Shown here in pieces: positions 7,804 through 42,144 of a DNA stretch of 64,000 bases (its first letter is position 1; each line of letters starts with the position of its first letter). The notes under the pieces were generated by a model, which did not search any database, was not told where the DNA came from, and was given only the letters and a program-made list of their open reading frames with translations. This DNA is from Bryobacteraceae bacterium (GTDB lineage Bacteria > Acidobacteriota > Terriglobia > Bryobacterales > Bryobacteraceae). Both the position numbers and the translations under genes were made by a program. The stretch covers positions 7,654-71,653 of the forward strand of contig DATMMD010000175.1 of assembly GCA_035569875.1 (NCBI GenBank), in the 5' to 3' direction.

Positions 7804-9388
7804 TTCTGCGCTGCGCAATCTACGCTCGATACTCTTCAGACCTCCAAAGTCCAATGTCGATCGCGGACCAGGTGCGCATGTGCCGCGAATATGCGGCTCT
7901 ACAGGGTTGGTCGGTGTTGGAAGAATACATTTACAGCGACGCGGAGCTTTCCGGCGCCGGCGCTGATCGTCCAGGCCTCCAGCGACTTCTCAAATGCACC
8001 CATGAACAGCCCCGCAAGTTCGATGTGATTCTGATCGACGATACAAGCCGATTGTCACGCCGGCAGGCTGATCAGAGCAATATCGTCGATCATCTCCGCT
8101 TCGCAGGAATCCGGCTGATCTCAGTAAGCCAAGGAATCGACAGTGGAAGCGACCAGGGCGACGTCCTGCTTACCGTGCATGGGTTAGTCGACAGCCTATA
8201 CATCAAGGAACTCGCGAAGAAAACTCACCGCGGTTTGGAGGGGCGAGCACTGAGTGGCATGCATACTGGCGGCCGTTGTTTCGGATTCCGAAACGAATCG
8301 AGCCCGGATGGCGTACGTCTGGTCATCGACGATCAGGAGGCCTCCATCGTTCGGCGAATCTTCGAAACTTCTGCCTCCGGAATCTCGCTTAAGGGAATCG
8401 CCAGGATGCTCAACGCTGAACGCGTTCCACCACCACGCGCGAGAAAAGGCCGGGAACATCCTACCTGGTGTCCTACCGCCATACGCGCCATGCTGCGAAA
8501 CGAACTCTACCTGGGAAGGATTCTCTGGAATCGTTCGCAGTTCGTTAAACATCCTGGAACGAATAGACGTGTTAAAAGAGCACGCCCTAAGACCGAATGG
8601 CGAACCGCAGAGCGACCCGAGCTGCAGATCATAAGCGACGATCTTTGGCAGCGAGTACAGGAACGCCTGCGAATCGTGAAGGAGTTATTCGGCCGCGCCG
8701 GCGCCGGAATCAACAAAGCCAGCTCGAGCAATTATCTGCTCAGCGGGTTTCTCAAATGCGGTCTATGCAACGCAAACATGATCATCGTAGCGGGCAAGGG
8801 CAGAAAGACGCTCCGGAAATACTACGGTTGCCCGCAGCACTTTAACCGGGGAGCCTGCATCAATGCCCAGACTATCCGCCAAGACGTGATTGAGCGAAAC
8901 TTCTTCTCCCGACTTCAGCGTGAGGTCCTCACCGATGAAGTGCTTGACTACACGACCGGCGAGTTTGTTCGCCGGCTACAGGAGGTTGGGCCGGATGATG
9001 GGGACAGGATCGTCCGTGACCGCAAAAAGGAAATCGAGCGCGAGTTGCAACGTCTGACGGCCGCGATCGCTGAGGCCGGGCATTCCCGGTATCTGATAGA
9101 AGCCGTCAGCGAGCGTGAGCGCGAATTGGAACGGATCGAAGAGAATCTCCTGATCGCCCGCCGGCAGGACCTGGCGGTCTCACTCCATCACAAGGATATT
9201 CGCGGGTGGATTGCGAGCCGCCTATCAGATCTCTGCGAACTCTTGAAGGTGGACACCGTTCGGGCCCGGGCCGAATTGGCGAAACACACCCTCGGTATCC
9301 GTCTCATTCCGGAAATTGATTCGGCCGGCAAGCCTTCCTACTTTGCAGAAGGTGTCTGGGACCTTCTGGGGACAGGTTTACTTTGCGA

Positions 9389-9410
<22 letters not shown>
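7800..9410 (+). CDS. Large serine recombinase (integrase)
   Basis: Resolvase-type N-terminus (AIYARYSSDLQ with the catalytic Ser region). It continues with a recombinase domain, a Cys-rich zinc-ribbon segment (CGLCNANM...YYGCPQH) and a coiled-coil C-terminus. Total 536 aa. Confidence 0.9.
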
Positions 9411-9465
<55 letters not shown>

Positions 9466-9521
9466 TCGCTATGGTAGCGCAACTGCTTCTGCTCGTCAAA
9501 CTCTTTTCCAAGTGCCAGAAA

Positions 9522-9541
9522 AACTCCCTTTAACTCCCTTT
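9522..9541 (+). repeat. Perfect tandem 10-mer AACTCCCTTT x2 at the 3' end of the integrase pseudogene
   Basis: Read directly. It lies between the tRNA 5' end and the integrase stop codon and is a possible recombinase arm-type site. Confidence 0.5.
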
Positions 9542-10657
9542 AGCCCGCCCTGCATTGATCTACGGCGGATTCCTGCATCGCTACGATCATCTGTACCACG
9601 TTGCTGTTGGCCTCCCTTTTTCGCTCGCTGACAACTGTCCCGTAGAGGTTCGTCGTAGTAGTGATGGAGGCGTGACGCATAAGCTCCTTCTGAACCGCAA
9701 CCGATGCCCCCACATCATCCAGCCAACTTCGGTAGGAATGCCTAAAGGTGTGCCAACCAACTTTGCCTTGTATAGCCGCCGCCGCAGCCGCCCTGCGGAT
9801 ATAACGCTTCTGAATCTCCTCCTGGTGGTACGGCCTCCCCGTAACGGGATTTGCAAACAACCAGGCTTCCGCAGTCGGATAGCACCGCTCTCGGTAGAGC
9901 AGCAGCGCCTCCGCTAGAACGGGGTCGATCGGCACACACTCCTGACTGGCTTCGGTCTTCGCGGGGCCAATTCGACCGTGGACGATTCCTCGCTGTATGA
10001 GCAGCGTACCGAGCTCGAAGTCGAAGTCCGACCACTGTAGTCCCACGATCTCACTACATCGCAAGCCGAGGCATCCCGCGATCAGAAACATGGTCCTGTA
10101 GGGATCGGGAGAATACGAAACAAGCGCGCTGAATTCCCCAGGCTCCAAAATTCGCGGTCGCTTCAATCGCTTAGTCCCTCCTTTCACACGAACGTGGGAT
10201 ATCGGATTTCGGTCGAGCAGATCCCACCTCACTGCGCTTTCAAAGAGCACATGCATCAGACCTCGGATGTGCGCCTTCGTTTTGGGGGCCAGGGGGAGGC
10301 CGCTGAGCCACTGCTCTACCGCGACCGCTTTTACACTGGCGAGCGGTGTGTCAGCCCAACGCGGCTTGATGTGGACGTCGAGGTTAGACCGTACGCCGCC
10401 CTGGTTGAATAGCGCTCCGGCATTTCCTCCTCTTCATAGCGGCCGATCAGCGCACCAAACTTTAGATCAGCCGCAGAAACGGCACGGTCCTCGTTTATCT
10501 TCATCAACAGAGCCTGGACTTTTGCCGTTTTCCTCACGGCCGACTTGGTCGGGTATTCAGTGAGCGTCCCGACCGTGACGGCCCTACGCCTTCGTGGATG
10601 CCCCGGTTCGTAATACCGAAGCTCCCAACTTGAATCTCCTTTCTTCCGCGTCTTCAA
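9540..10657 (-). pseudogene. Tyrosine recombinase (phage integrase family), frameshifted
   Basis: The N-terminal ORF 10331-10657 (MKTRKKGDSSWELRYYEPG...) and the catalytic ORF 9540-10256 (...HTFRHSYRSWL...LMRHASITTTTNLYG) are in different frames. The reading ...YGL(N)LDVHIKPRWADTPLASVKAVAVEQW... is restored by a 1-nt shift near 10377-10393. Confidence 0.8.
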
Positions 10658-10910
10658 TAGAAGACTCCGAATTGGTATCGTACTCTCCTAAACATATTGG
10701 TGTCTTTTCATTAGAGGACACGAGTGGCGGCGTTGAGGATACCGCACTCCGCAACCACAAGCCTAGTTCCGTGGCCCTGAATCGCCACAGATCGTCAATT
10801 CTTGTTGCCGGTAGGTTTCCTTCCCGAGCAAGCTTTTGTAAGGTTTTGGGATGTATACCCAGCAAATGTGCGGCCTGTTCGGTCTTGAGTAGCGGTTCAA
10901 AATTTTCCAT
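10584..10910 (-). CDS. Excisionase/AlpA-like helix-turn-helix protein
   Basis: LLKTEQAAHLLGIHPKTLQKLAREGNLPATRIDDLWRFRATELGLWL matches the excisionase-type HTH. An SD-like GGTGA precedes the ATG at 10910. The 3' end overlaps the integrase start. Confidence 0.6.
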   Translation of the reverse strand: MENFEPLLKTEQAAHLLGIHPKTLQKLAREGNLPATRIDDLWRFRATELGLWLRSAVSSTPPLVSSNEKTPICLGEYDTNSESSIEDAEERRFKLGASVLRTGASTKA

Positions 10911-11337
10911 GGTCACCTATTTTGAAAAGCGATATTGCGTTCATTCGTGGTCCAACGACGACGATTGGCTGACTGCAATAGAAAAGCGTTGCCGGAGGAG
11001 TTTATTGAACGAGCCAATCCGGGAAAATGCGAGTGGGGGGCGCCGGGAGCTCTACCGCTCATTGAATTCGATCGGTGCGCCTTTGAACAGCACCGGCGAC
11101 GAGCAACTCCCGGCAGCGCCAAGATCTGATGTCGGCCGACGACGGTCCAGAAGCGTCTCGAATCCATGATTCTGTCCGGCGGGCTGGCTGACACGGAATA
11201 GGGATTATCGAAGAAACGATTCAATGAATAGGAGAAACCAGCCTTTAATCAGCATAGGTCGTGTCGAACTGCCGGTCCAATGTTTTGTTGATACGATTGA
11301 CCCGCCACCTACATCATCGGCGTTATTCCTCGCCAGC

Positions 11338-12018
11338 CTTGATGTTCCATCGCGCGGCGGCTTCATGACGGCGCCTGTGTGGATTCGGGGAATCCTGAGC
11401 GATGAGTATGGAGTCCCGATCACCAGCGCCATCTATCTGAGTGGCGGGGAGGAGGAGCCGGGCCGCGACGAGAAAATCGCGCTCTCGTTAGCGCCTGAGA
11501 TCCGTGTCGAAGCTATTCCGCGCACTAAAACTCTATCGCGAATGATTGAGTCGGGAGAAATTGACGCCCTATACACGGCTCGAGCCCCCTCGACGTTCCA
11601 CAGCGGAGATGGCAGCGTGCGAAGGTTGTTTCCCGACTATCTAACCGTGGAACAAAATTACTACAAGAAGACCGGTATCTTTCCCATCATGCACGTGATT
11701 GCTATTCGGCGAGCCGTCTATGAAAAGAATCCATGAGTCGCGCAGTCATTATACAAGGCATTCCTGATTGCTCAGAAAGAGGCTTATCAGGATTTACACG
11801 AAACGGCCGCGTTGAAGACTATGCTTCCGCGGGCGGTACATCACGTAGAAGAAGTGGAGCGGCTGATGGGAAGCGATTATTGGCCCTATGGGCTGGATTC
11901 AAATGTGCACGTTTTGAATACCTTTCTGCGGTATTCCTATGAGCAAGGACTCTCGAAGCGCCAATTGACTGCGAAAGATCTCTTCGCGAAAGAAACCCTG
12001 GAATCGTTCAAGATTTGA
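11338..12018 (+). pseudogene. 5'-truncated paralog of the 26526-27470 gene (4,5-dihydroxyphthalate-decarboxylase-like / periplasmic-binding-fold family) with an in-frame TGA at 11734-11736
   Basis: Track ORFs 11224-11736 and 11812-12018 are in the same frame. The read-through gives ...AVYEKNP*VAQSLYKAFLIAQKEAYQDLHETAALKTMLP.... Similarity to the intact paralog starts only around TAPVWIRGIL, which matches TTGLWARGVL about 115 aa into the paralog. Confidence 0.7.
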
Positions 12019-12118
12019 GCGTCGTTATGACGAGAACCAGGCCCCGTTACTCGTTTCGGATTTTTTTCCCTTAGTTGACAGTCTCTCAACGTCCTACCTA
12101 TTCTTGGTGATAGTGACA

Positions 12119-13303
12119 ATGCCACGGCTGAGCAATCCCGGCACGCTGCTGCTGAGCGGGATCCTTGCCGCTATGATGCTGCTCGTGCTGTATGCGCAAG
12201 AACACGGGCCCCAGCCGGCTGGTGGCGACATCATTCCCATCCGCCAGGTTTACGATCCGTTCCCGGTTTTCAACGGACTGGCGATCGATCCGGAGAACAA
12301 TCTGGTTGCGATGACGGACGTAAACCGTAAGAGCATTCTGAGCTACTCCCGCATCGCCGAATCCCGCCGCGGAGGAGTTACGGATCCTCAACGCCAAATC
12401 TTCGGGCCGCTCACGAACGTCGGCTTCGTCGCAGGCATCGTATTGGATCCTCAGCACAAGGAAATTCTCGCTGTCAATAACGACATCGAGGATACGCTCA
12501 TCGTACTTCCCTACGACGCACACGGCAACGAGTCGCCCAAGCGAATGCTCTCAGTTCCGCACCAAGCTTGGGGGCTGGCAGTGAGCCGTACGCACGATGA
12601 ACTGGCGATCACGATAGAGCTTCAGGAAGCGGTGGTCATTTATAAAAGAGAGGCGCATAACGTGGAAGCGCCGATGCGCGTGATTCGCGGTCCAAACGCG
12701 GGCCTCGCGGATCCACACGGCATTCTGTGGGATGACCAGCACAACGAAATCACGGTGGCGAATCATGGAAACTACCGGGGCTTGGTGAAAGACACCGGCG
12801 GCGGCTGCGTACCCAACGGCAACGCAGAACCCGAAGCCGGCGCCGTGCTGCCTCCTTCCATCACGACATATTCGGGCGACACCAAGGGAGACGCTAAGCC
12901 CCTTCGTACCATCCAGGGCGATAAAACCAAGTTGGATTTTCCGATGGGCCTCGGCGACGACCCTGCCAACAACGAGTTCGCTGTCGCCAACAACGGCGAC
13001 AACTCCGTGCTGATCTTTTCCCGGACTGCCGCGGGGAATGTAGCGCCTGCACGCGTGATCGCTGGCCCCGAAACAGGTATTAACCGCCCCATGGGCGTGG
13101 CGATCGATACCGTGAACAACGAGCTTTGGGTCTCGAACTTCATTGACCATTCCGCCCTGGTGTTCGACCGGAAAGCGAACGGCAATGCGGCTCCGAAGCG
13201 AATTATACGGACTGCTCCCGCAGGCACGCCGAGCCCCGGATTCGGGAATCCACAGGCAGTCGCGTACGATTCCAAGCGCGGGCAAATCCTGGTCCCCAAT
13301 TGA
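12119..13303 (+). CDS. YVTN/NHL-like beta-propeller repeat protein, N-terminal ORF with a signal anchor. It may continue through the TGA at 13301.
   Basis: Hydrophobic N-terminus (LLLSGILAAMMLLVLYA). Repeated blades of about 45 aa show ...G(N/D)..P.R.I.G......P.G...D....E..V.N. ATG at 12119 is preferred over TTG at 12104. Confidence 0.8.
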   Translation: MPRLSNPGTLLLSGILAAMMLLVLYAQEHGPQPAGGDIIPIRQVYDPFPVFNGLAIDPENNLVAMTDVNRKSILSYSRIAESRRGGVTDPQRQIFGPLTNVGFVAGIVLDPQHKEILAVNNDIEDTLIVLPYDAHGNESPKRMLSVPHQAWGLAVSRTHDELAITIELQEAVVIYKREAHNVEAPMRVIRGPNAGLADPHGILWDDQHNEITVANHGNYRGLVKDTGGGCVPNGNAEPEAGAVLPPSITTYSGDTKGDAKPLRTIQGDKTKLDFPMGLGDDPANNEFAVANNGDNSVLIFSRTAAGNVAPARVIAGPETGINRPMGVAIDTVNNELWVSNFIDHSALVFDRKANGNAAPKRIIRTAPAGTPSPGFGNPQAVAYDSKRGQILVPN

Positions 13304-14179
13304 GTGGCCCAGCCGCGTATTGCGGCCTTCGCCCGGGGGGCGAACGGGACTATGGCTCCAGAAAGAATCATTACCGGCGGCGCGACGAAGATGTCCCGGA
13401 CGGTGCACGGTATCGCTTACGATCCGGTTCAGGACGAGGTCTACGTAACCAACGCGCTGGCCGATGCGGTGCTGGTGTTCCGCGGTGGCGCGGAAGGCCC
13501 TGCGCCCCCCGTCAGGACGATTCAGGGACCTTGTACCGGTATGGAGAATCCGCACGCGATCAGCCTGGATCTGGCGCATCGCGAAATCCTGGTCGCGAGC
13601 TTGAGCGCGAGGTCCATCGCGATATTTCCGATGGAAGGAAACGGCAACGTGACGCCGAAGCGCTACATCAAGGGGCCTAAGACCGGCTTGGGCCACACCG
13701 TCGGTTTGGGGGTCGATCCGGGAACGAATGTCCTGGTCGTCGCGAACGCCGAAGACATCCTGTTCTTTGATCGCCTCGCGTCGGGCGACGTCGCGCCGAT
13801 CGGCCAGATCAAAGGCGAGCACACCGGAATTCGGGATGAACCTTGGGAGCTACAGATCTACAAAGGAAAGATCTTCCTGGCGGCGTCCAACCATTTGCAC
13901 CTCAACCTCTACTCCCAAGTCACGCTCAAGCCCGAATATAGCCACGGCGACGCCAAAATTCCCGACGACCCGTGGCTCAATCCCCAGTTGGGATTCATCG
14001 GCGTCTGGAATGTGCGCGATCGCGGTGACGTGCCGCCTCGCGTGAAGATCGGTGGTCCATTCAGCGAATTGGTGCATCCCACAGGTTTGGCGCTCAATCC
14101 CGTGGACGGTGAGATCTACGTGACCGATAGCATCCGCAACAGCTTGTTCTCGTTCCTGGTCCCCGCGCTCTTGAAGTAG
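13304..14179 (+). CDS. YVTN/NHL-like beta-propeller repeat protein, C-terminal ORF in frame with 12119-13303
   Basis: Same blade motif as the upstream ORF. The only start is the GTG directly after the TGA. There is no SD and no signal peptide. Confidence 0.75.
   Translation: MAQPRIAAFARGANGTMAPERIITGGATKMSRTVHGIAYDPVQDEVYVTNALADAVLVFRGGAEGPAPPVRTIQGPCTGMENPHAISLDLAHREILVASLSARSIAIFPMEGNGNVTPKRYIKGPKTGLGHTVGLGVDPGTNVLVVANAEDILFFDRLASGDVAPIGQIKGEHTGIRDEPWELQIYKGKIFLAASNHLHLNLYSQVTLKPEYSHGDAKIPDDPWLNPQLGFIGVWNVRDRGDVPPRVKIGGPFSELVHPTGLALNPVDGEIYVTDSIRNSLFSFLVPALLK
13312..13344 (+). promoter_or_regulatory. Two stem-loops immediately 3' of the in-frame TGA (candidate SECIS-like or recoding element)
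   Basis: GCCGC-guauu-GCGGC at 13312-13326 and UUCGCC-cgggg-GGCGAA at 13328-13344. Equivalent hairpins sit at the same offsets in the paralog. Confidence 0.35.
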
Positions 14180-14193
14180 ACCTTGCTGAGGCG

Positions 14194-14225
14194 CTATTTG
14201 ATACCGATCCTATTTGATACCGATC
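14194..14225 (+). repeat. Perfect 16-bp tandem duplication CTATTTGATACCGATC x2
   Basis: Read directly. The second copy (14210-14225) encodes the last residues (IGIK) and the stop of the minus-strand permease. Confidence 0.9.
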
Positions 14226-15652
14226 AGGGGCCAGTAGAGCGGCACAACCAAGAGCAGCAACAGCGAATCCACGAGGCTCATGATCAGGCCGAGCCGGAGA
14301 ACGTCCTTCGCGCGGAAATAATTGTATGCGTACCCGATTACCAGCACCCCGGACTGATACACGAAGATCTTTCCGCCTGAGGAGAATACCCACAGCATGC
14401 CCAGCTTCAGCGGGCTCAAGCCATGGGTGATCGCGACCTGCATCAGCAACGGCATCGAGGTGCCGAGCATGGAAATTTCGCTGGCCAGGAACAGGTGGTA
14501 GAGGAAGCCCGTCCAATACAGCGCAAACGTGGAAAGCAGCTGGTGAGGCAGCAAAGGCTCCAGCCACCCGAAGACAATGTTGGTGAGGACCGCCAAGCCG
14601 CGCGACGCGCTGAGAACCTTGCCCATGCTGACCGCAGCGGCGACAAAGAACAGCTGCAGGAAGTTCAGCTTCCGCATGTCTTGGATGGTCAGGATGCCAG
14701 CGAACGGCAGTACTCCTAACAAGCCGATACCGAGCCCGATCATCGAAGAAGGAATGTGGTGCAGGAAGTCGGTGGCCCAGAGCGCGATCGCCAACAACAT
14801 CAGGGCCATCGATTTCTTTTCCAGCGACGACCACGGACCCGCTTTGCGCAATTCATCCTGCAAGTGTTGTACACCACCAGGTAACGTAGCCACTTCCGGA
14901 GGATAGAGCCACAGCGTCAGCCTCCACGCCACCAGGATCGTGATGATGTCCGAAGGCAGGTACGCCACCAGCCACTGGCTCCATAGCACTTCGACGTGAC
15001 CCACGTTCTCGATGATGCCGCGTCCGGTGATCGCCGCCGCGCCGGCGATGATCGATTTATCGAACACTCCTGCCGTGTAGGTCAAGATGAGGAACATACC
15101 CCGACCGACATTGCTCCCGGGCCCCAACCCAAACGCCTGGATCAGTCCGGTAGCCACTGCGGCCATAACGGTCACGCGCGCCATTCCTGAAGGCACAAGA
15201 AAAGTTAACAAGAAATCCGAGAGGATTAAGGCGAGCAACAGGCGCGAGTAACTGGTACCAATGCGGATTGTGATCAGGTACGCCAGCCGCTTCGCCAGTC
15301 CCGACTTGCTGGCCATGGTGCCGAATAGAATCGCGCCCATCAGAAACCAGGGCGTATCGTCGGCGAATCCACTGAACGCAACGTCGAACTTGACCACACC
15401 GAGCGCCCAGAAGAGATAGCAGCCGATCAGGCCGGTGAGTCCGTGATCCATTACCTCCGTGGCCCACGCCAGGATCATAAACAGCGAGATGGCGATGGCG
15501 TGCTGCGCTTTCGGTTCCAGATGCAAAGGTAGAAACCAAAGCGCGATGGGTGCCGCTATCGACAGCACGGCCTTCCAAACGCTCGGCGAGGCGCTCCTGT
15601 CGAGGGCCGCAGCAGAGGAAGGCGGAGAGATCGTGCCTACGCTATCAGCCAT
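14210..15652 (-). CDS. Anion permease of the ArsB/NhaD superfamily (SLC13/DASS-like)
   Basis: Polytopic membrane protein, about 480 aa from the internal ATG (MADSVG...). The motif style is ...FMILAWATEVMDHGLTGLIG...TPWFLMGAILFG.... The longer track ORF would overlap the aldolase gene. Confidence 0.7.
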   Translation of the reverse strand: MADSVGTISPPSSAAALDRSASPSVWKAVLSIAAPIALWFLPLHLEPKAQHAIAISLFMILAWATEVMDHGLTGLIGCYLFWALGVVKFDVAFSGFADDTPWFLMGAILFGTMASKSGLAKRLAYLITIRIGTSYSRLLLALILSDFLLTFLVPSGMARVTVMAAVATGLIQAFGLGPGSNVGRGMFLILTYTAGVFDKSIIAGAAAITGRGIIENVGHVEVLWSQWLVAYLPSDIITILVAWRLTLWLYPPEVATLPGGVQHLQDELRKAGPWSSLEKKSMALMLLAIALWATDFLHHIPSSMIGLGIGLLGVLPFAGILTIQDMRKLNFLQLFFVAAAVSMGKVLSASRGLAVLTNIVFGWLEPLLPHQLLSTFALYWTGFLYHLFLASEISMLGTSMPLLMQVAITHGLSPLKLGMLWVFSSGGKIFVYQSGVLVIGYAYNYFRAKDVLRLGLIMSLVDSLLLLLVVPLYWPLIGIK

Positions 15653-16391
15653 TGCCGGTCCCCAAGAAGTAATCCTGCAGCATGCGCCAGCGCTCCTCGT
15701 GGATGCTACTGGACTCGACTCCCTTTCGCGCCGCCAGGATGCCCGTTTTGGTTCTGGCTGAAATAACTGGCAGCTTCGCGAGCGAGGCCGCGCGAAGCAT
15801 TGTTTCCGCAACTTTCTCGATCCTGTGAGCGATGACGCACACGTCTGCGATTCCCGGGCCGGCCACGATGCAGCCGTGGTTCTTCAGCAGTACTGCGCCG
15901 AAAACACCAAGCGAGGCCGCCACATCATCGCCCAACTGAGGTGTCGAGATGCTGACCGCGCCGTTGTCAAGCACCGGCAGCTGATCGGTTAACGCGGCGC
16001 AGTCCTGATCGAGCGGCTCGACCGCGATCCCGAGCGCGGCCATCAGAGTCGATGCCGCGGGGTGCGCGTGGAGTACGCAATGGACATCCGGACGAGCGGA
16101 GTAGATGCGCGCGTGAATGGGCCACTCGCGCACGCCGCTCGATTCACCGGGCCGGTCGACACGCACGCCGTTCAAATCGATTACGATCAGGTCTTCCGGC
16201 TCAAGCTTCCACCAGCTTACCGGCCGGGGTTTGATGAGAATGCAAGAATCCCGCAGATTCTCGCTCGGGAGTCTGGCGCTTAGATGCCCACCTAATCCGT
16301 CGCCGACCGCCTTGGCCGCGAACAAAACCTTGCACGCCTTAACCAATTCCTCGCGGAGTTCGGATTCGCCGCGCGCAGGCCCCCGAGTCAA
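15645..16391 (-). CDS. Class II aldolase/adducin-family protein
   Basis: KACKVLFAAKAV.. in the N-terminal region and a metal-binding VHCVLHAHP motif. Tightly packed in an operon. Confidence 0.8.
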   Translation of the reverse strand: MTRGPARGESELREELVKACKVLFAAKAVGDGLGGHLSARLPSENLRDSCILIKPRPVSWWKLEPEDLIVIDLNGVRVDRPGESSGVREWPIHARIYSARPDVHCVLHAHPAASTLMAALGIAVEPLDQDCAALTDQLPVLDNGAVSISTPQLGDDVAASLGVFGAVLLKNHGCIVAGPGIADVCVIAHRIEKVAETMLRAASLAKLPVISARTKTGILAARKGVESSSIHEERWRMLQDYFLGTGNG

Positions 16392-16393
16392 GG

Positions 16394-17680
16394 TCAGACA
16401 TCCGCCTTCATGAGCTCGCGAGCGCCTTCATCGAATTCGATTTCTCGGTTCAACACCAGAGAGCACGAACGAACCCAGTAGGCATCGCCACGATGCGCCG
16501 CTTCGGGCTCACGCCCCTGCTGCAACGCGCGGATCTCCTGCAGCAGCAGGCGGCGCGCGGCGATGATCGCGGTGTCGCTAGTTCCCAGGCGCTCCCGTGT
16601 GCGGTCGACAGTCGCACCCATGCTCTCCTGCAAGGCCTGGTCCTGAGCGGCAAATCCGTGAATTCCGGTCATGCTGATATTGCGTTGGACCTCGCGGTTG
16701 ATTCCGTAGTTGTTGTCCTTATTGCGAAGCGGCCGGAAGGTGATGGGATCGACCTTGGAGTGAACGAAAGTTTCGTTGGCGATCGCGTCGCGATCTTCCT
16801 CGGAGAGCGGGCCCTCGGGATTCCAGCTTATTGTCCAGACCCAGCAAGTTTCGTCGTCCCGTGGAACCCAGCAGTGGCCATGAATAGAGTTGCCCTTTTG
16901 ATACGGAATCATCGTGTGGCTGGGTAGCAGGAACTGGGTCATGCGCCAGTAGTAGGTGTCCTCTTCGGCATTGCGCCGCACGGCGATGATCAAGCCATAT
17001 TCGGTTTTCTTCACCGTGAATCGCGGGGCCTTGTCCAGCAGATGATATTTGGCCCGCAGATTCGAACTGTCCCGCACCTTCGCCACGTAGGAATCCGTCA
17101 CGCGGAACGCATCCACGGAGGCGTGAAGGAAATTGGAATGGCTGGAATCAATGCCGCCCTCAATGGCTTGCAGGTAATTGGTTTCCTGAAATCGCTTGGA
17201 GATGTGGCGGTTCGAGTCCGGCACGCGAGCCCACTCCAGCTTGGGTAGCTCGGGGGCCTGATCCGGCGGACCGAGGTAAGCCCAAATCAGCCCGCCATAC
17301 TCGCGCGTGGGGTAGGCCGTGATCCGGATTTTGTTCTCGAAACCGTACTCCGGGGGCTCATTCGGCATGTCCACGCAGGCGCCGTCGACAGCATACTTCC
17401 AGCCATGGTAAACGCAGCGCAGACCGCACTCTTCATTTCGTCCCCAGAACAGGCTGGCGCGGCGGTGGGGGCAGAACTCATCGATCAGCCCGACACGCCC
17501 GTGCGTATCGCGGAAGGCAATCAGATCTTCGCCCATCAAGCGAACCCGGACAGGGGCACAATCCGGCGTGGGCACCTCGGAGGCGAGCAGGGCCGGCACC
17601 CAATAACGGCGGAAGTATTCTCCGGCAGGCGTGCCAGGATCCGTCCGGGTCAGAAGGTCATTCTCTTCTCTCGACAGCAT
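16394..17680 (-). CDS. Rieske [2Fe-2S] aromatic-ring-hydroxylating oxygenase, alpha subunit (phthalate-family-like)
   Basis: Rieske motif CPHRRASL...LRCVYHGW, with a large catalytic domain following. Confidence 0.85.
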   Translation of the reverse strand: MLSREENDLLTRTDPGTPAGEYFRRYWVPALLASEVPTPDCAPVRVRLMGEDLIAFRDTHGRVGLIDEFCPHRRASLFWGRNEECGLRCVYHGWKYAVDGACVDMPNEPPEYGFENKIRITAYPTREYGGLIWAYLGPPDQAPELPKLEWARVPDSNRHISKRFQETNYLQAIEGGIDSSHSNFLHASVDAFRVTDSYVAKVRDSSNLRAKYHLLDKAPRFTVKKTEYGLIIAVRRNAEEDTYYWRMTQFLLPSHTMIPYQKGNSIHGHCWVPRDDETCWVWTISWNPEGPLSEEDRDAIANETFVHSKVDPITFRPLRNKDNNYGINREVQRNISMTGIHGFAAQDQALQESMGATVDRTRERLGTSDTAIIAARRLLLQEIRALQQGREPEAAHRGDAYWVRSCSLVLNREIEFDEGARELMKADV

Positions 17681-17690
17681 AAGTTCCAGG

Positions 17691-17978
17691 TTACAAAAAG
17701 CTTCGGAGTTTCTCGGCTGCTTCCACAGGACGGCGGTCCGCTACCAGATCATGCGCCATATGGGCTATTCCATGGAGCCGGGCGATCCCTTCGCGCTGCT
17801 TCGAATCAGGCTCATATTTCAAAACGAACCCAGTAATGGACCAGATCGCGTCAAGCTCCGCCTCGCGGTAAACCAGATGTTCAAAATCCACGGAAACTTC
17901 GAGATGCGCGATGATGTTCCGAAGAGTTTCCGGCGAAAAATCCGTCACTGTCACGATGTGTCCTGGGTTCAACTGCAT
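17691..17978 (-). CDS. Hypothetical protein (95 aa)
   Basis: ORF packed between the propeller gene and the Rieske oxygenase gene with 7-10 nt spacers. No motif. Confidence 0.5.
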   Translation of the reverse strand: MQLNPGHIVTVTDFSPETLRNIIAHLEVSVDFEHLVYREAELDAIWSITGFVLKYEPDSKQREGIARLHGIAHMAHDLVADRRPVEAAEKLRSFL

Positions 17979-17985
17979 GGTCCCG

Positions 17986-18810
17986 TTAGAAAACCTCGGG
18001 GAAGTGGAAGGTAAGAACCGCGTTCAGCCGCTTGTCGGACACGATCATATTCTTGTTCTTCACATCTAGCGCGATGCCACGAGGCATTCGCAGGATTCCG
18101 TGCGGTCCGCCAATGGTCCACTTGGGGGGCACGTCTCCATTGTCGTTGATACTCCAGACGCCAACATAGGCTTCGTCCGACGACAGCTCAGCGAAGGGAC
18201 CCGGGCCACGGACGCTCACCATGATCTCACCCTTCGACGGATGTACCGCGAATGGGCCGCCAAAGGCATACAAATGACTCTTCGGTCCACCGATCACTGC
18301 TTTGGGCTTCACGTCACCAGAATCGGTGCGGTTGAAAATGAGCAGGCGGACCTGTCCATGCCCGGCGCTTCCGCCGACTATCAGCAAATTATTCACTGGA
18401 TCCACCGCAACGGGCGCGTCGCCATTGAGCATGGTGTCAGGACCCCGGATCTCGCGGATCGGCGCAACATCGCCACTGCCGTCGCGGGGGAACACGAGTA
18501 CCGCGCCATAGCGGGTCGGCACGAAGATCTCGTTGTGGACGGGATCGACATCCAAATGTTCCGGCGCGTCCAGTTGTGTGTGAGGTCCGATAATTACCCG
18601 TGCGGGGGCTTCCTCGCCGTTAGCCGAGCCACGGTATGTGAGGATCGCCTGGCCAAACTGCTGGGGCACCGTAAATTCATCGTGGATGGGGTCATAGGCA
18701 ATGCCGTGCATCGTGCGTCCCAGCAGGCTGCCTTGTCCCTCCACTTTTCTGACTGGCTTTGCTCCGTCCTTCGCCAACCTGGCGAAGACCGCGATCTGCG
18801 GATGGGCCAC
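17986..18810 (-). CDS. YVTN/NHL-like beta-propeller repeat protein, C-terminal ORF in frame with 18811-20166
   Basis: Paralog of 13304-14179. It starts at the GTG directly after the TGA (plus-strand tca at 18811-18813). No SD and no signal peptide. Confidence 0.75.
   Translation of the reverse strand: MAHPQIAVFARLAKDGAKPVRKVEGQGSLLGRTMHGIAYDPIHDEFTVPQQFGQAILTYRGSANGEEAPARVIIGPHTQLDAPEHLDVDPVHNEIFVPTRYGAVLVFPRDGSGDVAPIREIRGPDTMLNGDAPVAVDPVNNLLIVGGSAGHGQVRLLIFNRTDSGDVKPKAVIGGPKSHLYAFGGPFAVHPSKGEIMVSVRGPGPFAELSSDEAYVGVWSINDNGDVPPKWTIGGPHGILRMPRGIALDVKNKNMIVSDKRLNAVLTFHFPEVF
18769..18801 (-). promoter_or_regulatory. Two stem-loops immediately 3' of the in-frame TGA of the second paralog (candidate SECIS-like or recoding element)
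   Basis: On the minus-strand RNA: CCGC-agauc-GCGG (18801-18789) and CUUCGCC-agguu-GGCGAAG (18787-18769). Confidence 0.35.
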
Positions 18811-20166
18811 TCAATTCGGAACCAGAATCTGCTCGCGCTTGGTGTCATAGGCGATCGGATGCGGATTCCCCAATCCCGGCACAGGCTGATTCGGTGGTGC
18901 ACTGCGGACCACACGCAGCGGCGCCACGTCGCCATTAGCATCCGGATTGTAGACGGCTGAGGTGTGATTACCGAAGTTCGCCACCCACAATTCGTTGTTC
19001 TTCTTGTCGAGGAAGATGCCGGTCGGATTACTGACCATGCTCGCTGTTCCTTTGATCACCCGCAACGGAGCAGCATCGCCGGACGCGTTGGCGTCGAACA
19101 CCAGAACCGAGTTCCCGCCGTCGTTCCCGATGAAAAGTTCATTGCGTTCTTCGTCCAGCGACACGCCGGTTGGCCAGTTCATCTGCGTTTGCGGGCCCTG
19201 GATCGTCCGCAAAGGCCGCACGTCGCCTTTCGCGTCCTTCGCATAGACGGTGATGGACGGTGGCCCGATCTTTCCCGAGCCCGGTACGGCATCGTCACGA
19301 TTCAACGGGAACCCTGGTGAACCTTCGCGCTTGCGGTTCCCGGATTGATTCTGGCGCACGCTGTGCGAAGAGCCGTGATTGGTTACAAACAGGAGCCCAC
19401 GCTTGGTGTCGAGCACCATTCCGTGAGGATCGGCGAGTCCCGTATGGTCGCCCTGCACTACTCGCAAAGGAGCTTCCGTTCCCTTGGCCGACTTGTTGTA
19501 AACCACAATCGCGTTGTCGTGTTGAACAGTTAGAAACAACTCCTGTTTTTCTTCGTCCACCGTGATACCGAAGGTGCCGTGCGGGGTGTGGAGCTCGCGG
19601 TCAGGCTTTACGTCTCCGATGGCCTTTCGCGAAAAGATCACCAGTGTGTCGATGGTGTCGTTGTTGACCGCATAAATGTCACCGTTCGCAGGATCGATAT
19701 ACAGCCCGCATTGAAATTCGATTTTCGTATTCAAGCCGCCGATGAGGCGTTTCGGTTCACTGGATTTGTTTGGCGAGGTCTTGACGCCGCGATCATAAAC
19801 CCAGATGTTGAACAAATTCTCGTCGGTCATCACGACTTCATCGTGATTAGAGTCCACCGCTACAGCGCTGTAGGCTGCGTAGGGATCTCGGATCGTGCGC
19901 TCGGGCTTACGCTGGCTCGCGTCCTCGGGAGTCCACGCTCCGCCGGCAGTTCGCGCCTGCATGAGGAGGTTGCGCAACGGCAATTCGCCGGCCATTAAGA
20001 ACAGCCCAGCGGACGCTTCCGGGCGAGCGCAGGCTTCGTCCTCATCCGATGGCAGCGCATCGTACGAAACGAGCCGCGAAGTGGGCCGCGAGTCTCCCGT
20101 AAAGCCCAGCCAGATCATCAGCGACAATCCGATAGGGAGTGAAACGCGGAGAGACTTGCTAATCAC
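18811..20166 (-). CDS. YVTN/NHL-like beta-propeller repeat protein, N-terminal ORF with a signal anchor. It may continue through the TGA.
   Basis: Paralog of 12119-13303. The N-terminal hydrophobic segment is LPIGLSLMIWLGF. It has the same blade motif and ends ...AYDTKREQILVPN. Confidence 0.8.
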   Translation of the reverse strand: MISKSLRVSLPIGLSLMIWLGFTGDSRPTSRLVSYDALPSDEDEACARPEASAGLFLMAGELPLRNLLMQARTAGGAWTPEDASQRKPERTIRDPYAAYSAVAVDSNHDEVVMTDENLFNIWVYDRGVKTSPNKSSEPKRLIGGLNTKIEFQCGLYIDPANGDIYAVNNDTIDTLVIFSRKAIGDVKPDRELHTPHGTFGITVDEEKQELFLTVQHDNAIVVYNKSAKGTEAPLRVVQGDHTGLADPHGMVLDTKRGLLFVTNHGSSHSVRQNQSGNRKREGSPGFPLNRDDAVPGSGKIGPPSITVYAKDAKGDVRPLRTIQGPQTQMNWPTGVSLDEERNELFIGNDGGNSVLVFDANASGDAAPLRVIKGTASMVSNPTGIFLDKKNNELWVANFGNHTSAVYNPDANGDVAPLRVVRSAPPNQPVPGLGNPHPIAYDTKREQILVPN

Positions 20167-20246
20167 GGCTTTCTCCTGTATATCACACCGGCCACCAGGT
20201 TACTGCCCTCGTTCGACGCCGAACGCGACTGAGGTAGAATCCTTTC

Positions 20247-20714
20247 ATGACCCGGCTCTTCCTAGCCTTTGTTTCGCCAGCGTTAATATGTGTGTTTCTT
20301 TTCGCCCAGCAAAAGCAGTCTCCCCAAGCAACCATCGCGGCTCTCGACAAAATGACCGCTGCAGGCAAGAGTCAAAAGGAACTTGCCCAGTATGTCTTTG
20401 ACAACCACGGTTGCGGCGGCTGTCATAAAGCGGGAGAAGGGGGCAAACTCGGCTTCACGGAGAAAGGCAAACAGCTTAGCAATGGATTCGAAGGATGCAT
20501 CCGAAGCTTGACGGCGATGAATGTGATTGCTCAAGTGCCCGCGAATCAGCGTTCCGCCGATCAGAAAATCGAGGCCCAGCGTTTCCAAGAGTTCGGCTGT
20601 ACGGTATGCCACCAGATCGTGCCTGGCAAGATGGGTTTGACGGCCTTAGGGGCCAAACTCACGCGTATGCACTTGGGCTGCGTGGATGTGGAAAAGACGC
20701 TGGCTTCCAAGTAG
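20247..20714 (+). CDS. Diheme c-type cytochrome with a signal peptide
   Basis: Two CXXCH motifs (CGGCH and CTVCH) and an N-terminal signal sequence. It is divergent from the propeller operon. Confidence 0.8.
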   Translation: MTRLFLAFVSPALICVFLFAQQKQSPQATIAALDKMTAAGKSQKELAQYVFDNHGCGGCHKAGEGGKLGFTEKGKQLSNGFEGCIRSLTAMNVIAQVPANQRSADQKIEAQRFQEFGCTVCHQIVPGKMGLTALGAKLTRMHLGCVDVEKTLASK

Positions 20715-20747
20715 CTCCGCCAAACCGGCCGCCAGAAAGGACTTTCC

Positions 20748-21923
20748 ATGCCCAACTTGATTGACGAGTTCCAGCAAGGACTTGTATCGCGCAGGAGGCT
20801 GCTGGAGCTGCTCACCGGAGCTGCAGGGACTGTAACGCTTGCATCGCCTCGCTTGCACGGGCAATCGAAGCCCGCGAAAGCGCCGGCCGGAGTCGTTGAA
20901 CCGCCCAAATTCAGTCCCGCGAATATCGGCGGCGGTGGCCGCATCGAGCGCGATTTCTATCGCGAGTGGCTCAAGAAAAGCCAGGTGCCGATGATCGAGG
21001 GTTACTCGCTGCTGGATGCGGCAAAGCAGGAGGTGCAGCCTTGGCCGGAGATCGGGGGAAAGGGCTTGTACCTGAATTTTTCCGGGAACGTCCACATGGA
21101 CGGTGTTATCGAGGAAATTCCAGCGGGCAAGGCGCTCGAGCCAAAGCGGCATTTTTACGAACAGATCGTGTACGTGCTGGCCGGGCGCGGGTATACCACG
21201 GTAGGCGGCGGCAACAAGCCCAACAAGGTTTCCTGGGGAGAAGGCAGCCTGTTCACCGTTCCAGTAAACGCGCTGCATCGCCATTTCAATAGCGATCCGG
21301 CGCATCCAGCGCGGCTGCTGTTCATCACCACCTTCCCATTTATGATTCAGGTATTCGGCAGCATGGGACTGATCAATGACTCTAACTTCAGTTTCACCGA
21401 TCGTTATGATGGATCGCCGGATTATTTTACTTCCACCGCTCGCATACGCAAGCGATGGGACAAAACCAACTTCGTAAAAGACGTTCGCTCCGCAGAAGTC
21501 GTGCTGTGGGAGGAACGCGGCGACGGCAACGCCAGCATGTTCTTCGATATGGGCGGCAACACCGTCCTCGAGCCGCACGTCTCCGAATTTGAAGTGGGCA
21601 CCTACAAACTGGGCCATCGCCATCCCTACGAGGCGATCATCCTGACGCTGAACGGCAGGGGCTATTCGCTGGCAGAGAAAGATAAGCTCAAAGATTCAGA
21701 GGCGGTCAAGATCGATTGGCAAGCCGGGTCCGTCGTATCCCCACCGTTCTTCTGGTTCCACCAGCACTTCAATACGGGGAAAACCAAGGCGCGATACCTG
21801 GCGATTACCGAAGGCGATTTTCCGTTGCGCCTCGGCATTCCGTTGTCAGTCGAACAGATTGAGGCGGACAAAGAGGACCCGAACATTAAGAAACGCTTCG
21901 ACCGGGAAGCGCATCCGGCCTGA
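20748..21923 (+). CDS. Bicupin-fold protein with a twin-arginine signal
   Basis: Tat-like SRRRLLELL N-terminus. Two cupin-like halves with His-rich metal motif regions (…ALHRHFN… and …WFHQHFN…). Confidence 0.65.
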   Translation: MPNLIDEFQQGLVSRRRLLELLTGAAGTVTLASPRLHGQSKPAKAPAGVVEPPKFSPANIGGGGRIERDFYREWLKKSQVPMIEGYSLLDAAKQEVQPWPEIGGKGLYLNFSGNVHMDGVIEEIPAGKALEPKRHFYEQIVYVLAGRGYTTVGGGNKPNKVSWGEGSLFTVPVNALHRHFNSDPAHPARLLFITTFPFMIQVFGSMGLINDSNFSFTDRYDGSPDYFTSTARIRKRWDKTNFVKDVRSAEVVLWEERGDGNASMFFDMGGNTVLEPHVSEFEVGTYKLGHRHPYEAIILTLNGRGYSLAEKDKLKDSEAVKIDWQAGSVVSPPFFWFHQHFNTGKTKARYLAITEGDFPLRLGIPLSVEQIEADKEDPNIKKRFDREAHPA

Positions 21924-21935: not shown

Positions 21936-24900
21936 TTACCAGAGCAGCTTCAATCCGAATTGAATCTCGCGTTGCGTCGTTGCCGTGTATGTGATCGTCC
22001 CCGCGGTTGGCGACAAAGCACCGGAGGAAAACATGGCGACCACCGGCATCCCAAAATTCGTGTGATTCAACACGTTGAAGAATTCAGCTCGAAGCTCAAC
22101 CTTGATTCTCTCCGTGATGGTCGTGGTCTTGATCAATGACGTGTCAAACTCCACTAGCCCTGGCCCGCTCAGAATGTCCCGGCCGGCGTTGCCGTAAGTT
22201 CCTGCAGGCGGCAAAACAAATGCGGCGGGATTAAACCACTGCGTGCGGTTTCCGGTAACGATCGGACCAGTGAAGTTGGGATTAAAGGAAACGCGATCCG
22301 GGTTTCTAGCATCGCCGTTATTCGACTGGTTGGAACCCACCAGAGGAGTAAAAGGAAAACCGCTTTGCCCTGTGATGATGCCATTCCAGCTCAACCCGCC
22401 AATCAACTTCTCAGTTATCCGGCCGCCATTATTTCCAAAAGGCCGGCCGTGACCAAAGGGCAAAGCATAGCTGAAATTGCCACTCACCTGCTGCGCCGGA
22501 TTAAAGTTCGAGGGACCCCAATCCGCGCGCGGATTTTGAGGAATCATCACCGTCGTAGTCCCAGCGATCCCCTCATTGGCAAGGAAAGAAGAGGAGTGAA
22601 TGTCCAGGCTTTTCGACCAAGTGTAATTGCCCCGGAACTGCAAGCCTTTGCTGAAACGCTGAATGAGGCTGACTTGCAGCGCGTTGTAACTGCTACTGGC
22701 ATTGGCTAGTGTGTATCGAGTATTCGCCAGCGCGTTGTTCGCCCTTACCACGGTACTGGGAAACGGATGACCGATCGTCCCGTTTGCCGTCGCGGTCGGA
22801 GTTACAGTGTTGACGTCTACCGTGTCAGGCAGGTAGTATCCATGTTCCCCTACATAGCCGACGCTGAAAAGCATGTTGGCTGTAATTCCCTGTTCGAGTT
22901 TTAGGGTCCATTCCTCGACCGTCGGCGTTTGCAGGTCGGGCTGCACGCCCGCCGGGGATACCTTTGCACCCGGAAGATTTGCCGTTATCTGAATCGGGAA
23001 AGTAGCAGGGGATGTCTTTGTCCCGATGGAGGGATTAATGTTCAGATTGTTTCCGATCGGGCTGCCATCACAGCACGACCCCATGTAATCAAGCTGGTTA
23101 TAGTAAGTTCCAAACGCTGCATGGATCGCCGTTTTCGAAAGGGGCGCCCATGCCAGCCCGACGCGCGGACCAAAAAGCCACTTCGCGTTATTCACGGTGT
23201 AGGGAGAAGTTCCAAGCATGGGCTGAGTCTGCAAACATTGGGCCGTGCCAGGGGAGCAACCCGCAGTCCCAAAAATGTAATTGGAGGCTTCGCCATTTGG
23301 TGAGTTCCAGCCGTTGTTAAACTCATGCCGCAGTCCCAGGCTAAGAGTGAGATTGGAGCGCAGCTGAATGGCATCCTGCACATACCACGCGCCTGCCAAC
23401 TGGCGCCAACCAATCTCGGCTGGATTCAGTACTGCCACAATCTGGCTGGCTTGGCCTTGCAAAAATGCCGCCACCCCGGAAAAGGTGGCCACACCGTACC
23501 GTTGATTGGCAGCGTCATCGTTGGCCTGAATCCGTTGGAGCCATACTCCCGCGGTGATGGTGTGCTTGCCCTTCGTGATCTGGACATCATCGGTGAAGGT
23601 AAATAGATTCCTGGCGACTTTCTCAAATTGCTGGGACCCGTTGCTGCCCGCGATGGACCATGCGCCCACGCTGTTAAAGCTCGCCGAGCCGACCGAAATG
23701 TCTCCCGCCGGTTGCCCGGGAACAAACGATGTGTCCGCGGGTGTCACCGGCGGCGAGGCCACCAGATCCCAGTGAGCGCGCGAAAAACCGAAGCGGGCGT
23801 TATTTAGAATCGAAGGAGAAAATAGGTGCGTTTCCTGTACACTCGCAATCTGCGCGCGTAGAATGCTCGATGTTTGCGTCAGCGGATTGGCTCCGGGCAA
23901 GAGATTCCGGCCGTCGTCGATCGTGTAAATTCCGGAGAGCATATCTCTGGGGGAAAAATTATGATCGAGCCGAACGTTCCCGAAATCTTCCCGAACGCTC
24001 TGGACGGGATTACTAAACGCCTCCGCGACTCCGCCGCCCAGGTCGGGCCCATTGGGAGTCGGCCACAGAGCGAAATACGGCGCGATCCCCGGCGCCACCG
24101 GAATCGGTTTGCCATTCGACCCCAGTAACGTTCCGCTCCGCGCACTGGCGTCCGGCACAAATGTCACATCGGACAAGCTAAGGCTCTGCCGGAAGCCTTC
24201 ATAATTACCGAAAAGAAAGGTCTTGTCTTTCTTAAGCGGTCCTCCCAAGGCCGCGCCAAATTGATTGCGTTTGAACGGTGGATTTGTGGATTGGGCAAAG
24301 AAGTTACGCGCGTCCAAAACATCGTTCCTCAAGAATTCGAACAGATCTCCGTGGAACTGATTCGTGCCGGACATAGTCACAACGCTGATTTGTCCCCCCG
24401 GCCGTTTTCCGTATTCAGCACCATACGCATCCTCCAGTACGTTAAACTCGCGTACCGCATCGACCCCTAACAATAGACCACTGACGCCGCCAGGCATGAC
24501 GTCGGCAGTAGAGACGCCGGTGTACTCAATGCCATTCATCAAGAAGAGATTGAAGTCTTCGCGATTTCCGGAAACGGAAAAGTTGAAGCCTTGTCCCTTT
24601 CCCGTGCTCGTGGTCGATTGATTCGAGGTCATATTCGTTGTGCTGGGATTCAGAGTGATGAGCGTGTCCCAACTGCGGCCATTCAGAGGAAGGTCCTTTA
24701 CCTGTTGTTCGTTGACTACCCCGGCGACGGATGCCGTCGTTGTATTCACCAGCGGGACCTCCTCGGTGACAGTCACTACTTGTCGAACGGCGCCGACGTC
24801 CATACGCATGTTCACGACCGCCTGTTGCCCGACCACGAGCGTTATCCCCGTTCTAACAACCGAAGTGAACCCTGGCTTCTCTGCTCTGACTTCGTACTGC

Positions 24901-42143: not shown

Positions 42144-42144
42144 C

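Follow-up and report, generated by a model that had tools for sequence, protein, structure and literature searches.

For bacterial selenoproteins with an in-frame selenocysteine insertion sequence (SECIS), such as Escherichia coli formate dehydrogenase H (fdhF), the published model has an apical loop at a distance of 16–37 nt from the UGA and a G close to where that loop begins, and the chemistry of selenocysteine (Sec, U) is typically that of peroxidases and reductases. Many beta-propellers of the NHL and YncE-like kinds are binding or scaffold proteins, and the catalytic six-bladed NHL/SGL propellers bind Zn or Ca via His, Asp and Asn loops on one face. TonB-dependent uptake of aromatic acids is known in Sphingobium SYK-6. 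Few groups of bacteria are more abundant in soil than the Acidobacteriota, whose catabolic capacities are mostly deduced from annotation. Here we describe a 64,000-nucleotide stretch of a Bryobacteraceae (Acidobacteriota) genome (assembly GCA_035569875.1, contig DATMMD010000175.1, positions 7,654–71,653 of the forward strand; hereafter the window) that encodes two paralogous proteins, propellers A and B, next to genes for a Rieske oxygenase, an anion permease and a dihaem cytochrome c. Propellers A and B are full-length 12-blade NHL-type tandem beta-propeller selenoproteins, predicted to be exported, and belong to a large Sec/Cys family of the Acidobacteriota. Their features in window coordinates are:

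12119–14179, + strand: propeller A, 686 codons with an in-frame TGA at 13301–13303 (from the translation and NHL Pfam matches)
13301–13303, + strand: UGA of propeller A, read with high confidence as selenocysteine (U395), from the TGA column, Cys homologs and an RNA contig
13313–13346, + strand: SECIS-like element of propeller A, with hairpin 1 at 13313–13325 and hairpin 2 at 13326–13346 (loop CGGGG)
20166–17986, − strand: propeller B, 726 codons with an in-frame TGA at 18813–18811, heading an operon
18811–18813, − strand: UGA of propeller B, read with the same confidence as selenocysteine, in the same column and spanned by an RNA contig
18768–18801, − strand: SECIS-like element of propeller B, with hairpin 2 loop AGGUU, z = −2.9, and 4/4 and 8/8 pairs formed

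The two proteins are 38% identical, and each gene contains a single TGA within the identical context GNPxxxAYDxKRxQILVPN-(TGA)-VA(Q/H)P(R/Q)IAxFAR. A scan of one genome per species yielded 71 related loci, nearly all in metagenome-assembled genomes (MAGs) of Acidobacteriota (Bryobacterales, Terriglobia, Blastocatellia, Vicinamibacteria and Thermoanaerobaculia). The motif LVPN-U-V occurs 125 times in these loci and the window together, with TGA at the U position in 124 copies and TGC in one (locus L050). When propeller A was used as a query with U written as C, 2224 relatives were found among 8000 candidates scored. The large majority of the best database matches (109 of 120) are ~380–430 aa long and end exactly at the TGA codon, and the remaining 11 are 699–778 aa long and all have Cys at the TGA column. 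The same residue is present in all eight remote uninterrupted homologs from a library with one representative per 50%-identity cluster, such that Cys occupies the column in 19/19 full-length database homologs inspected, down to ~35% identity. TGA terminates ~20 other genes in the window, so the genetic code is standard and reassignment of TGA is ruled out. Soil metatranscriptome contigs cross both UGA codons unchanged, one matching 13170–13557 (propeller A) and the other 18517–18857 (propeller B).

The genes for selenocysteine synthesis and insertion flank the propeller pair in one relative. Locus L001, on a 1.57-Mb contig of a Terriglobia MAG, encodes copies of propellers A and B that are 78% and 81% identical to those of the window, in the order selA, selD, propeller A, propeller B, cytochrome c, a further propeller, a transglutaminase-like protein, selB and tRNA-Sec. 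Positions 7359–20102 of this locus (equivalent to L005) form a compact island in which the complete selenocysteine machinery surrounds propellers A and B and the cytochrome c.

Alignment of 112 distinct sequences downstream of the UGA (column 1 being its U) reveals two hairpins common to all, at columns 13–25 and 26–46. The loop of hairpin 2 has the consensus A-G-G-N-U with an invariant G35, and the geometry fits the bacterial SECIS model. Paired bases occupy 94.4% of cells in the alignment, as against 36–53% when the partners are slid. Three pairs covary: 30–42 (U-A 86, C-G 23), in which both columns are synonymous third positions of Phe and Ala codons, 27–45 (GC 78, AU 11) and 16–22 (CG 81, AU 11). 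In four Cys-form genes that encode a near-identical peptide the hairpin is degraded, with pairs and the loop GG lost. No SECIS family matched in an Rfam search. The arms of hairpin 2 (13328–13345; columns 28–45) encode the invariant peptide F404-A405-R406-x-A408. Protein conservation next to the Sec may therefore be imposed in part by the RNA. The Cys forms keep the peptide and relax the pairing.

Taken together, the internal UGA of both propeller genes is almost certainly decoded as selenocysteine. The initial annotation had raised a Sec/Cys redox centre as a possibility, and its identity as Sec is strongly supported by the TGA in 124 of 125 copies, the Cys homologs, the covarying hairpin and the sel genes. 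A third selenoprotein candidate was considered at TGA 11734 (EKNP-(TGA)-VAQSL) and rejected: homologs have variable, non-Cys residues at this position and no hairpin lies downstream, so that in spite of the resemblance to the Sec motif the gene at 11224–12018 is probably a pseudogene. Scanning the whole window for further open reading frames (ORFs) split by a UGA turned up no other credible case.

NHL repeats are recognized by Pfam in both halves of propeller A and in the first half of propeller B (30.1, 29.7 and 41.6 bits; cut-off 20), and matches to SGL (SMP30/gluconolactonase) lie close to the cut-off of 26.3 bits (A, 24.3; B, 27.7). Structure prediction of the fused propeller, a check that the initial annotation had called for, gave one continuous protein: an AlphaFold2 model from a 13-sequence alignment is confident (predicted local distance difference test score, pLDDT, 86; predicted template modelling score, pTM, 0.86) and contains 12 four-stranded blades. 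The TGA codon falls inside blade 7 of this continuous fold, with U395 in the loop immediately after the strand ILVPN. The N-terminal 34 residues are modelled with low confidence and contain a hydrophobic helix, and a hydrophobic stretch precedes the first blade in 101 of 104 full-length copies, which fits export or membrane anchoring of the propellers. This hydrophobic region includes a Cys in 67 of the 104 copies, and in some lineages it may thus serve as a lipoprotein signal. An additional segment of ~90 residues lies ahead of the first blade in B-type copies, whose motif VAHPQI recurs in L001, L004, L009 and L074.

Among the 104 copies, no Cys column other than that of the Sec/Cys is conserved throughout, and CXXCH is present in none. 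Leaving aside the repeating blade motif, the invariant polar residues are H148, H200, H216, H344, R387, N394, R427, T428 and H430, of which H200, H344 and H430 are also kept in the remote Cys forms checked by eye. In the AlphaFold2 model these residues and U395 map to equivalent inter-strand loops of blades 3–8. Such loops share one face in propellers, so the Sec could plausibly form a site with several His and the two Arg. No cofactor motif was recognized in the propellers, and PDB searches by sequence with the family profile and by fold returned only generic NHL repeats (TRIM2/3/71, Brat and the designed 'Pizza' proteins) and generic NHL or tandem propellers, respectively. No NCBIfam model fits the propellers, the cytochrome c or the 95-aa protein encoded downstream of propeller B.

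The genes surrounding the propellers are organized as follows:

17978–17691, − strand: 95-aa ORF without a Pfam, NCBIfam or PDB match
17680–16394, − strand: Rieske oxygenase alpha subunit (Pfam Rieske and LigXa_C)
16391–15645, − strand: class II aldolase/adducin-fold enzyme (Pfam Aldolase_II)
15652–14210, − strand: DASS (divalent anion:Na+ symporter family) permease, the final gene of the operon (Pfam Na_sulph_symp)
20247–20714, + strand: dihaem cytochrome c of 155 aa, with two CXXCH motifs and a hydrophobic N-terminus
20748–21923, + strand: bicupin (Cupin_2) with a twin-arginine motif
21936–25157, − strand: TonB-type outer-membrane barrel (CarboxypepD_reg and OMP_b-brl_4)
26526–27470, + strand: cytoplasmic NMT1/THI5-fold protein, named 4,5-dihydroxyphthalate decarboxylase by JGI and NCBI
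11224–12018, + strand: probable pseudogene, a degraded paralog of the gene at 26526–27470 interrupted by a TGA at 11734

The ORF map and translations recovered every gene of the initial annotation at its coordinates, together with the layout it described. From propeller B to the permease the minus-strand operon is tightly packed, with spacers of 7, 10 and 2 nt and, between the last two genes, an overlap of 8 nt; ATG 15652 is the likely start of the permease from its translation, and the longest ORF opens at TTG 15811. The permease and propeller A are convergent with stop codons 30 nt apart, and propeller B and the cytochrome c gene are divergent across 80 nt. No flavin/NAD reductase or ferredoxin domain was found among the ~50 window ORFs of at least 100 aa scanned against Pfam, so the Rieske partner is missing from the window, as first reported, and the reductase may be encoded elsewhere.

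The cytochrome c has a signal-like N-terminus, and its CGGCH and CTVCH motifs, two further Cys and one Met are conserved in 20 homologs. No Pfam cytochrome family scores above cut-off, and PDB searches with the cytochrome c and with the 95-aa protein returned nothing useful. The bicupin begins with the twin-arginine motif SRRRLLELLTGAAGTVTLA (SRRRLLELL) followed by a hydrophobic stretch, as judged by eye, in agreement with the earlier prediction of export by twin-arginine translocation (Tat); it is weakly gentisate/5-aminosalicylate-dioxygenase-like (PDB 3BU7, E 7.5e-5). The permease matches Na_sulph_symp at 170 bits (Pfam cut-off 27) and NCBIfam TIGR00785 at 163 bits, below the cut-off of 198.6. 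Its orthologs beside propellers in other loci are 45–84% identical, and some homologs of the TonB-type barrel are 60–64% identical.

Genes for a Zn-dependent alcohol dehydrogenase and ketopantoate hydroxymethyltransferase (PanB) adjoin the propeller cluster at 25381–28337, an association repeated in L004 and L027. A second aromatic/tannin-type locus lies at 37131–45849 and encodes an MFS transporter, an Amidohydro_2 protein, a tannase/feruloyl esterase, a Meth_synt_2-like protein and a TonB-type barrel. The region 292–10256 includes a serine recombinase gene (7800–9410), a leftwards tRNA-Met gene (9389–9465) and a leftwards tyrosine-integrase fragment (9540–10256); six ORFs without a Pfam match, one of 1123 aa, precede the recombinase region. 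This looks like an integrated element whose end sits ~2 kb upstream of the propeller cluster.

Conservation of the neighbourhood was assessed by comparing loci with the window proteins by tblastn and by label-free clustering of all locus ORFs, with neighbours counted per contig within 10 kb of a propeller on 68 propeller-carrying contigs. The same DASS permease subfamily is present on 30 of the 68, a TonB-type barrel on 27 and the dihaem cytochrome c on 24. The Rieske and 95-aa genes are each found on 15, always the same contigs, and the aldolase-fold gene accompanies the Rieske gene on 14. Owing to the many short contigs, the counts are minimum values. The same gene families thus recur beside propellers in dozens of independent contigs, so the arrangement is more than chance. 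The initial annotation had asked for co-occurrence of the propeller, cytochrome c and Rieske genes in related genomes; the outcome is positive but graded, the linkage being commonest for the permease, barrel and cytochrome c and rarer for the Rieske triad (14–15 contigs) and bicupin (five).

About half of the loci carry two or three propeller paralogs, with type A accompanied by B, C or D (types set by the residues following U), and four arrangements recur. Arrangement I (nine loci) has u95-Rieske-AldII-PROP_C-PROP_A-DASS on one strand, continuing with Amidohydro_2, HpcH/HpaI aldolase and NMT1-fold genes and often with a third propeller and cytochrome c upstream (u95 and AldII being the 95-aa and aldolase-fold genes and PROP the propellers). 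Arrangement II (~ten loci) has GntR / PROP_C-barrel-PROP_A-UbiD-DASS, in some cases followed by a bicupin. Arrangement III (six loci) consists of GntR-c17-OCD-gentisate-type bicupin-DHDPS-type aldolase-PROP_A-(WD40)-cytochrome c-methyltransferase. Arrangement IV, from Vicinamibacteria, is Abhydrolase_10-PROP_D / barrel / PROP_A-FtsX-ABC. The window type (PROP_A > < DASS-AldII-Rieske-u95-PROP_B < > cytochrome c-bicupin) is common to L004 and is rearranged in L009 and L010. In many cases the Rieske triad and the propellers share a strand. Among the enzymes of other loci, the UbiD proteins resemble VdcC/phenylphosphate carboxylase, a second family of bicupins resembles gentisate/5-aminosalicylate dioxygenases and the DHDPS-type gene resembles HpaI.

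Loci with Cys-form propellers have similar company. L076 has barrel-cytochrome c-propeller-bicupin-aldehyde dehydrogenase-Amidohydro_2, and L078 has cupins-cytochrome c-propeller-GMC oxidoreductase-barrel with a DASS ortholog (51% identity) upstream; in both, the cytochrome c homolog is directly upstream of the propeller. L075 contains genes for a LigXa-type Rieske protein, a Rieske ferredoxin, HpcH and protocatechuate 3,4-dioxygenase, as well as beta-ketoadipate genes. Genes for SCO1/SenC-like and HMA-like (GITCPTC motif) proteins lie beside the Cys-form propeller of L075 (7986–9272); these have no homolog in any other locus, and the link to copper delivery that they bring to mind is kept as a hint only.

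We conclude that the conserved unit consists of one or more propellers with the cytochrome c and the permease or barrel, and that downstream modules can be exchanged, the Rieske operon being one among several, since L001 is without it and other lineages have UbiD, a gentisate-type cupin, a DHDPS-type aldolase or ABC/FtsX genes. Functional coupling of propeller, cytochrome c and permease is probable. Of the periplasmic-oxidation, uptake and catabolism module originally envisaged, the recurring unit of propeller, cytochrome c, permease and barrel stands; a single fixed pathway does not emerge, and the periplasmic oxidation within it is a proposal.

The Rieske protein (Pfam Rieske 60 bits, LigXa_C 159 bits) is, by its sequence, a phthalate-family alpha subunit of the isophthalate-dioxygenase-like kind. 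It matches isophthalate dioxygenase of Comamonas testosteroni over its full length (PDB 9INA, E 6.5e-109) and phthalate dioxygenase (PDB 7FJL) with E 1.7e-90, and its CPH...CVYH and DSSHSNFLH motifs, the latter with the His ligands of the mononuclear iron, align with isophthalate dioxygenase. In that enzyme R234 and H257 bind the meta-carboxylates (PMC12445078). Both residues are kept, as are G172 and I246, and three positions are substituted: T175 by Ser, V178 by Ser (as in phthalate dioxygenase) and F249 by Gln. Because of these substitutions the substrate probably differs from plain isophthalate, and the pattern of kept and substituted residues makes a di- or polycarboxylated and probably further substituted benzene ring a reasonable substrate class.

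Other cytoplasmic genes accompany the Rieske gene. The 95-aa gene is present on all 15 contigs with the Rieske gene and is adjacent to it in most. The aldolase-fold protein (Aldolase_II, 130 bits) is possibly a decarboxylase, its best NCBIfam matches, all below cut-off, including 3,4-dihydroxyphthalate decarboxylase, and the family of the gene at 26526–27470 is also found near propeller or Rieske genes in ten other loci. The initial annotation recognized no pathway here; this does not hold for the cytoplasmic genes, which match phthalate/isophthalate-type aromatic-carboxylate catabolism. A divalent-anion permease would suit carboxylated aromatic substrates of this kind. Aromatic carboxylates have about an even chance of being the substrate class.

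The analysis shows that the propellers are selenoproteins, that export signals are present, that the genes are linked and that the Rieske protein belongs to the phthalate family; a working model for the locus starts from these points. An aromatic compound, anionic or becoming so, would cross the outer membrane through the TonB-type barrel. Propellers A and B would then act on it in the periplasm and exchange electrons with the cytochrome c, the single Sec lying in a loop of the top face and presumably close to invariant His and Arg; the Tat-exported bicupin may also take part in this periplasmic step. We infer the enzymatic nature of the propellers, the redox character of the step, the direction in which electrons flow and the substrate. 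The DASS permease would import the anionic product, the isophthalate-dioxygenase-like Rieske oxygenase and its 95-aa companion would hydroxylate the ring with a reductase from elsewhere, and the class-II-aldolase-fold and 4,5-dihydroxyphthalate-decarboxylase-like enzymes would process the product, with decarboxylation in the cytoplasm. As a whole, the model has about an even chance of being correct. A bolder version is offered only tentatively, as we think it somewhat unlikely: the propellers could represent a new class of periplasmic selenoenzyme, in which Sec and the invariant His of the blade 4–8 loops form a new redox or metal centre on a tandem propeller. Equally tentatively, such an enzyme might exchange electrons with its dedicated dihaem cytochrome c and perform novel bond-making or bond-breaking on aromatic acids from plants or humus. 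Were this true, soil carbon turnover by Acidobacteria would be partly selenium-dependent.

Several observations weigh against the working model. Without a characterised or solved relative, enzymatic activity and redox chemistry of the propellers are inferred only. selA, selB, selC and selD are absent from the 64-kb window, although all four flank the orthologs in L001/L005, and the metatranscriptome contigs are of low depth, may contain DNA and are silent on co-regulation. The neighbour counts are raw, given without a background rate for these families in Acidobacteriota genomes; the 95-aa/Rieske/aldolase triad is present in only ~22% of contigs and in three gene orders, a bicupin of at least 50% identity in only 5/68 (7%), and 13 contigs, many of them short, show no partner genes. 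In L001 the propellers are directly convergent and accompanied by the cytochrome c but by no Rieske, aldolase or DASS gene. This last locus, with its sel genes and missing cassette, also speaks for the main rival, in which the genes are neighbours and not partners: the propellers and cytochrome c would form a unit with another periplasmic role, and an independent Rieske/aldolase/DASS cassette would have landed between the propellers. The restriction of the triad to 14–15 contigs, the unrelated enzyme sets (ABC/FtsX, Abhydrolase_10) beside propellers in Vicinamibacteria and the integrase/recombinase region 2 kb upstream in the window suit this explanation as well. However, the triad recurs with propellers in three orders across several Acidobacteriota orders, often on the same strand and with short gaps, one DASS subfamily accompanies the propellers whatever the cytoplasmic enzymes, and propeller B of the window heads the operon only 7 nt from the next gene. 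We therefore regard mere adjacency as unlikely, if a serious contender.

Other explanations concern the propellers themselves. They could be non-enzymatic binding or scaffold proteins that pass substrate from barrel to permease, with the Sec/Cys serving as a redox sensor or a metal(loid) ligand. Their nearest PDB sequence matches are indeed ligand-binding NHL domains (TRIM2/3/71, Brat), TonB-type barrels accompany them on 27 contigs and they have no recognized cofactor motif; but the Sec in selenoproteins is, to our knowledge, almost always catalytic, the Sec/Cys and the loop His, Arg and Asn are invariant in the 104 copies and in remote Cys forms, and the dedicated cytochrome c points to electron transfer, all of which make a purely binding role improbable. 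A protective role, as a Sec-based peroxidase or reductase of the quinones or peroxides that polyphenol turnover makes, fed by the cytochrome c, would suit the general chemistry of Sec, the dihaem partner and the association with many different aromatic-catabolic sets instead of one pathway, which suggests a general function. We consider it quite improbable, as a resolving Cys and a thioredoxin-like motif are both absent and the tight link to a specific permease subfamily and TonB barrels indicates substrate flow and not defence. That the TGAs are true stops, making each propeller two genes or a pseudogene, would agree with the splitting of propellers by gene callers, the 109 of 120 best matches that end at the TGA and the many cluster representatives that end at profile position 427. 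Yet the TGA is kept in frame within an invariant motif in all copies but one, every uninterrupted homolog has Cys, the hairpin covaries, sel genes are adjacent in L001 and the codon lies inside blade 7 of a single predicted fold; together with the RNA contigs, these observations nearly exclude the split-gene or pseudogene reading.

Whatever the function, a family of thousands is systematically mis-split into two 'hypothetical' or 'YncE' ORFs because the selenocysteine codon is taken for a stop. Correcting this would alter the predicted proteomes of many soil genomes, and the SECIS consensus offers a means of locating its members and annotating them anew. The propellers add a secreted, non-thioredoxin-fold selenoprotein family and tie selenium use to loci for aromatic-acid degradation. 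Their conserved association with a small cytochrome c and a single permease subfamily provides a concrete hypothesis, and the Cys forms are expressible in ordinary hosts. The family appears undescribed: no propeller, NHL or YncE-like selenoprotein is reported in the open-access papers and preprints searched, among them recent reviews of prokaryotic selenoproteomes, a 2006 survey, a 2022 preprint on new families and a 2025 prediction paper.

With in-frame SECIS selenoproteins of the fdhF type, the propellers share a UGA where homologs have Cys and a coding-region stem-loop soon after it with a conserved apical-loop G, and sel genes bracket the L001 copies. They differ in their beta-propeller fold, in having no Mo/W-pterin, Ni-Fe or thioredoxin-like motif, in export apparently by a Sec-type signal and not by Tat, and in a small extra hairpin that precedes the main one. 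Four-stranded blades and weak Pfam and PDB matches are shared with the catalytic six-bladed NHL/SGL propellers (peptidyl-alpha-hydroxyglycine alpha-amidating lyase, SMP30/gluconolactonase and paraoxonase/arylesterase), and conserved His, Asp and Asn likewise fall in loops of a single face; however, the propellers are tandem 12-blade proteins with a single invariant Sec/Cys and a cytochrome c partner, and Arylesterase and Lactonase score at or below their Pfam cut-offs. YncE, the name that JGI gives to the family, is also a periplasmic beta-propeller, but it is seven-bladed and differs in architecture, and a score of 31 bits against an NCBIfam cut-off of 400 leaves the name unsupported.

The periplasmic propeller dehydrogenases whose electron acceptor is a c-type cytochrome, such as PQQ quinoproteins and those of the soluble glucose/aldose dehydrogenase type (PQQ, pyrroloquinoline quinone), offer a working analogy, in that an exported propeller enzyme encoded next to a small cytochrome c may feed oxidised products to uptake systems; the propellers described here have no PQQ-family Pfam match, contain Sec and give no sign of an organic cofactor. 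On the cytoplasmic side, the phthalate and isophthalate dioxygenase (PDO/IPDO) systems of Comamonas testosteroni and the lignin-biphenyl (5,5′-dehydrodivanillate, DDVA/5-carboxyvanillate) pathway of Sphingobium SYK-6 share an IPDO-like Rieske protein, LigXa_C and Amidohydro_2, HpcH or decarboxylase neighbours. Unlike these, the window operon is without a reductase or dihydrodiol dehydrogenase, has the 95-aa companion and uses a DASS permease in place of an MFS or TTT transporter, and it is accompanied by periplasmic selenoproteins and a cytochrome c that those systems lack. SECIS recoding and catabolic gene islands are of known kinds; the new variants are this family of selenoproteins and the way it is paired with a permease and a cytochrome c.

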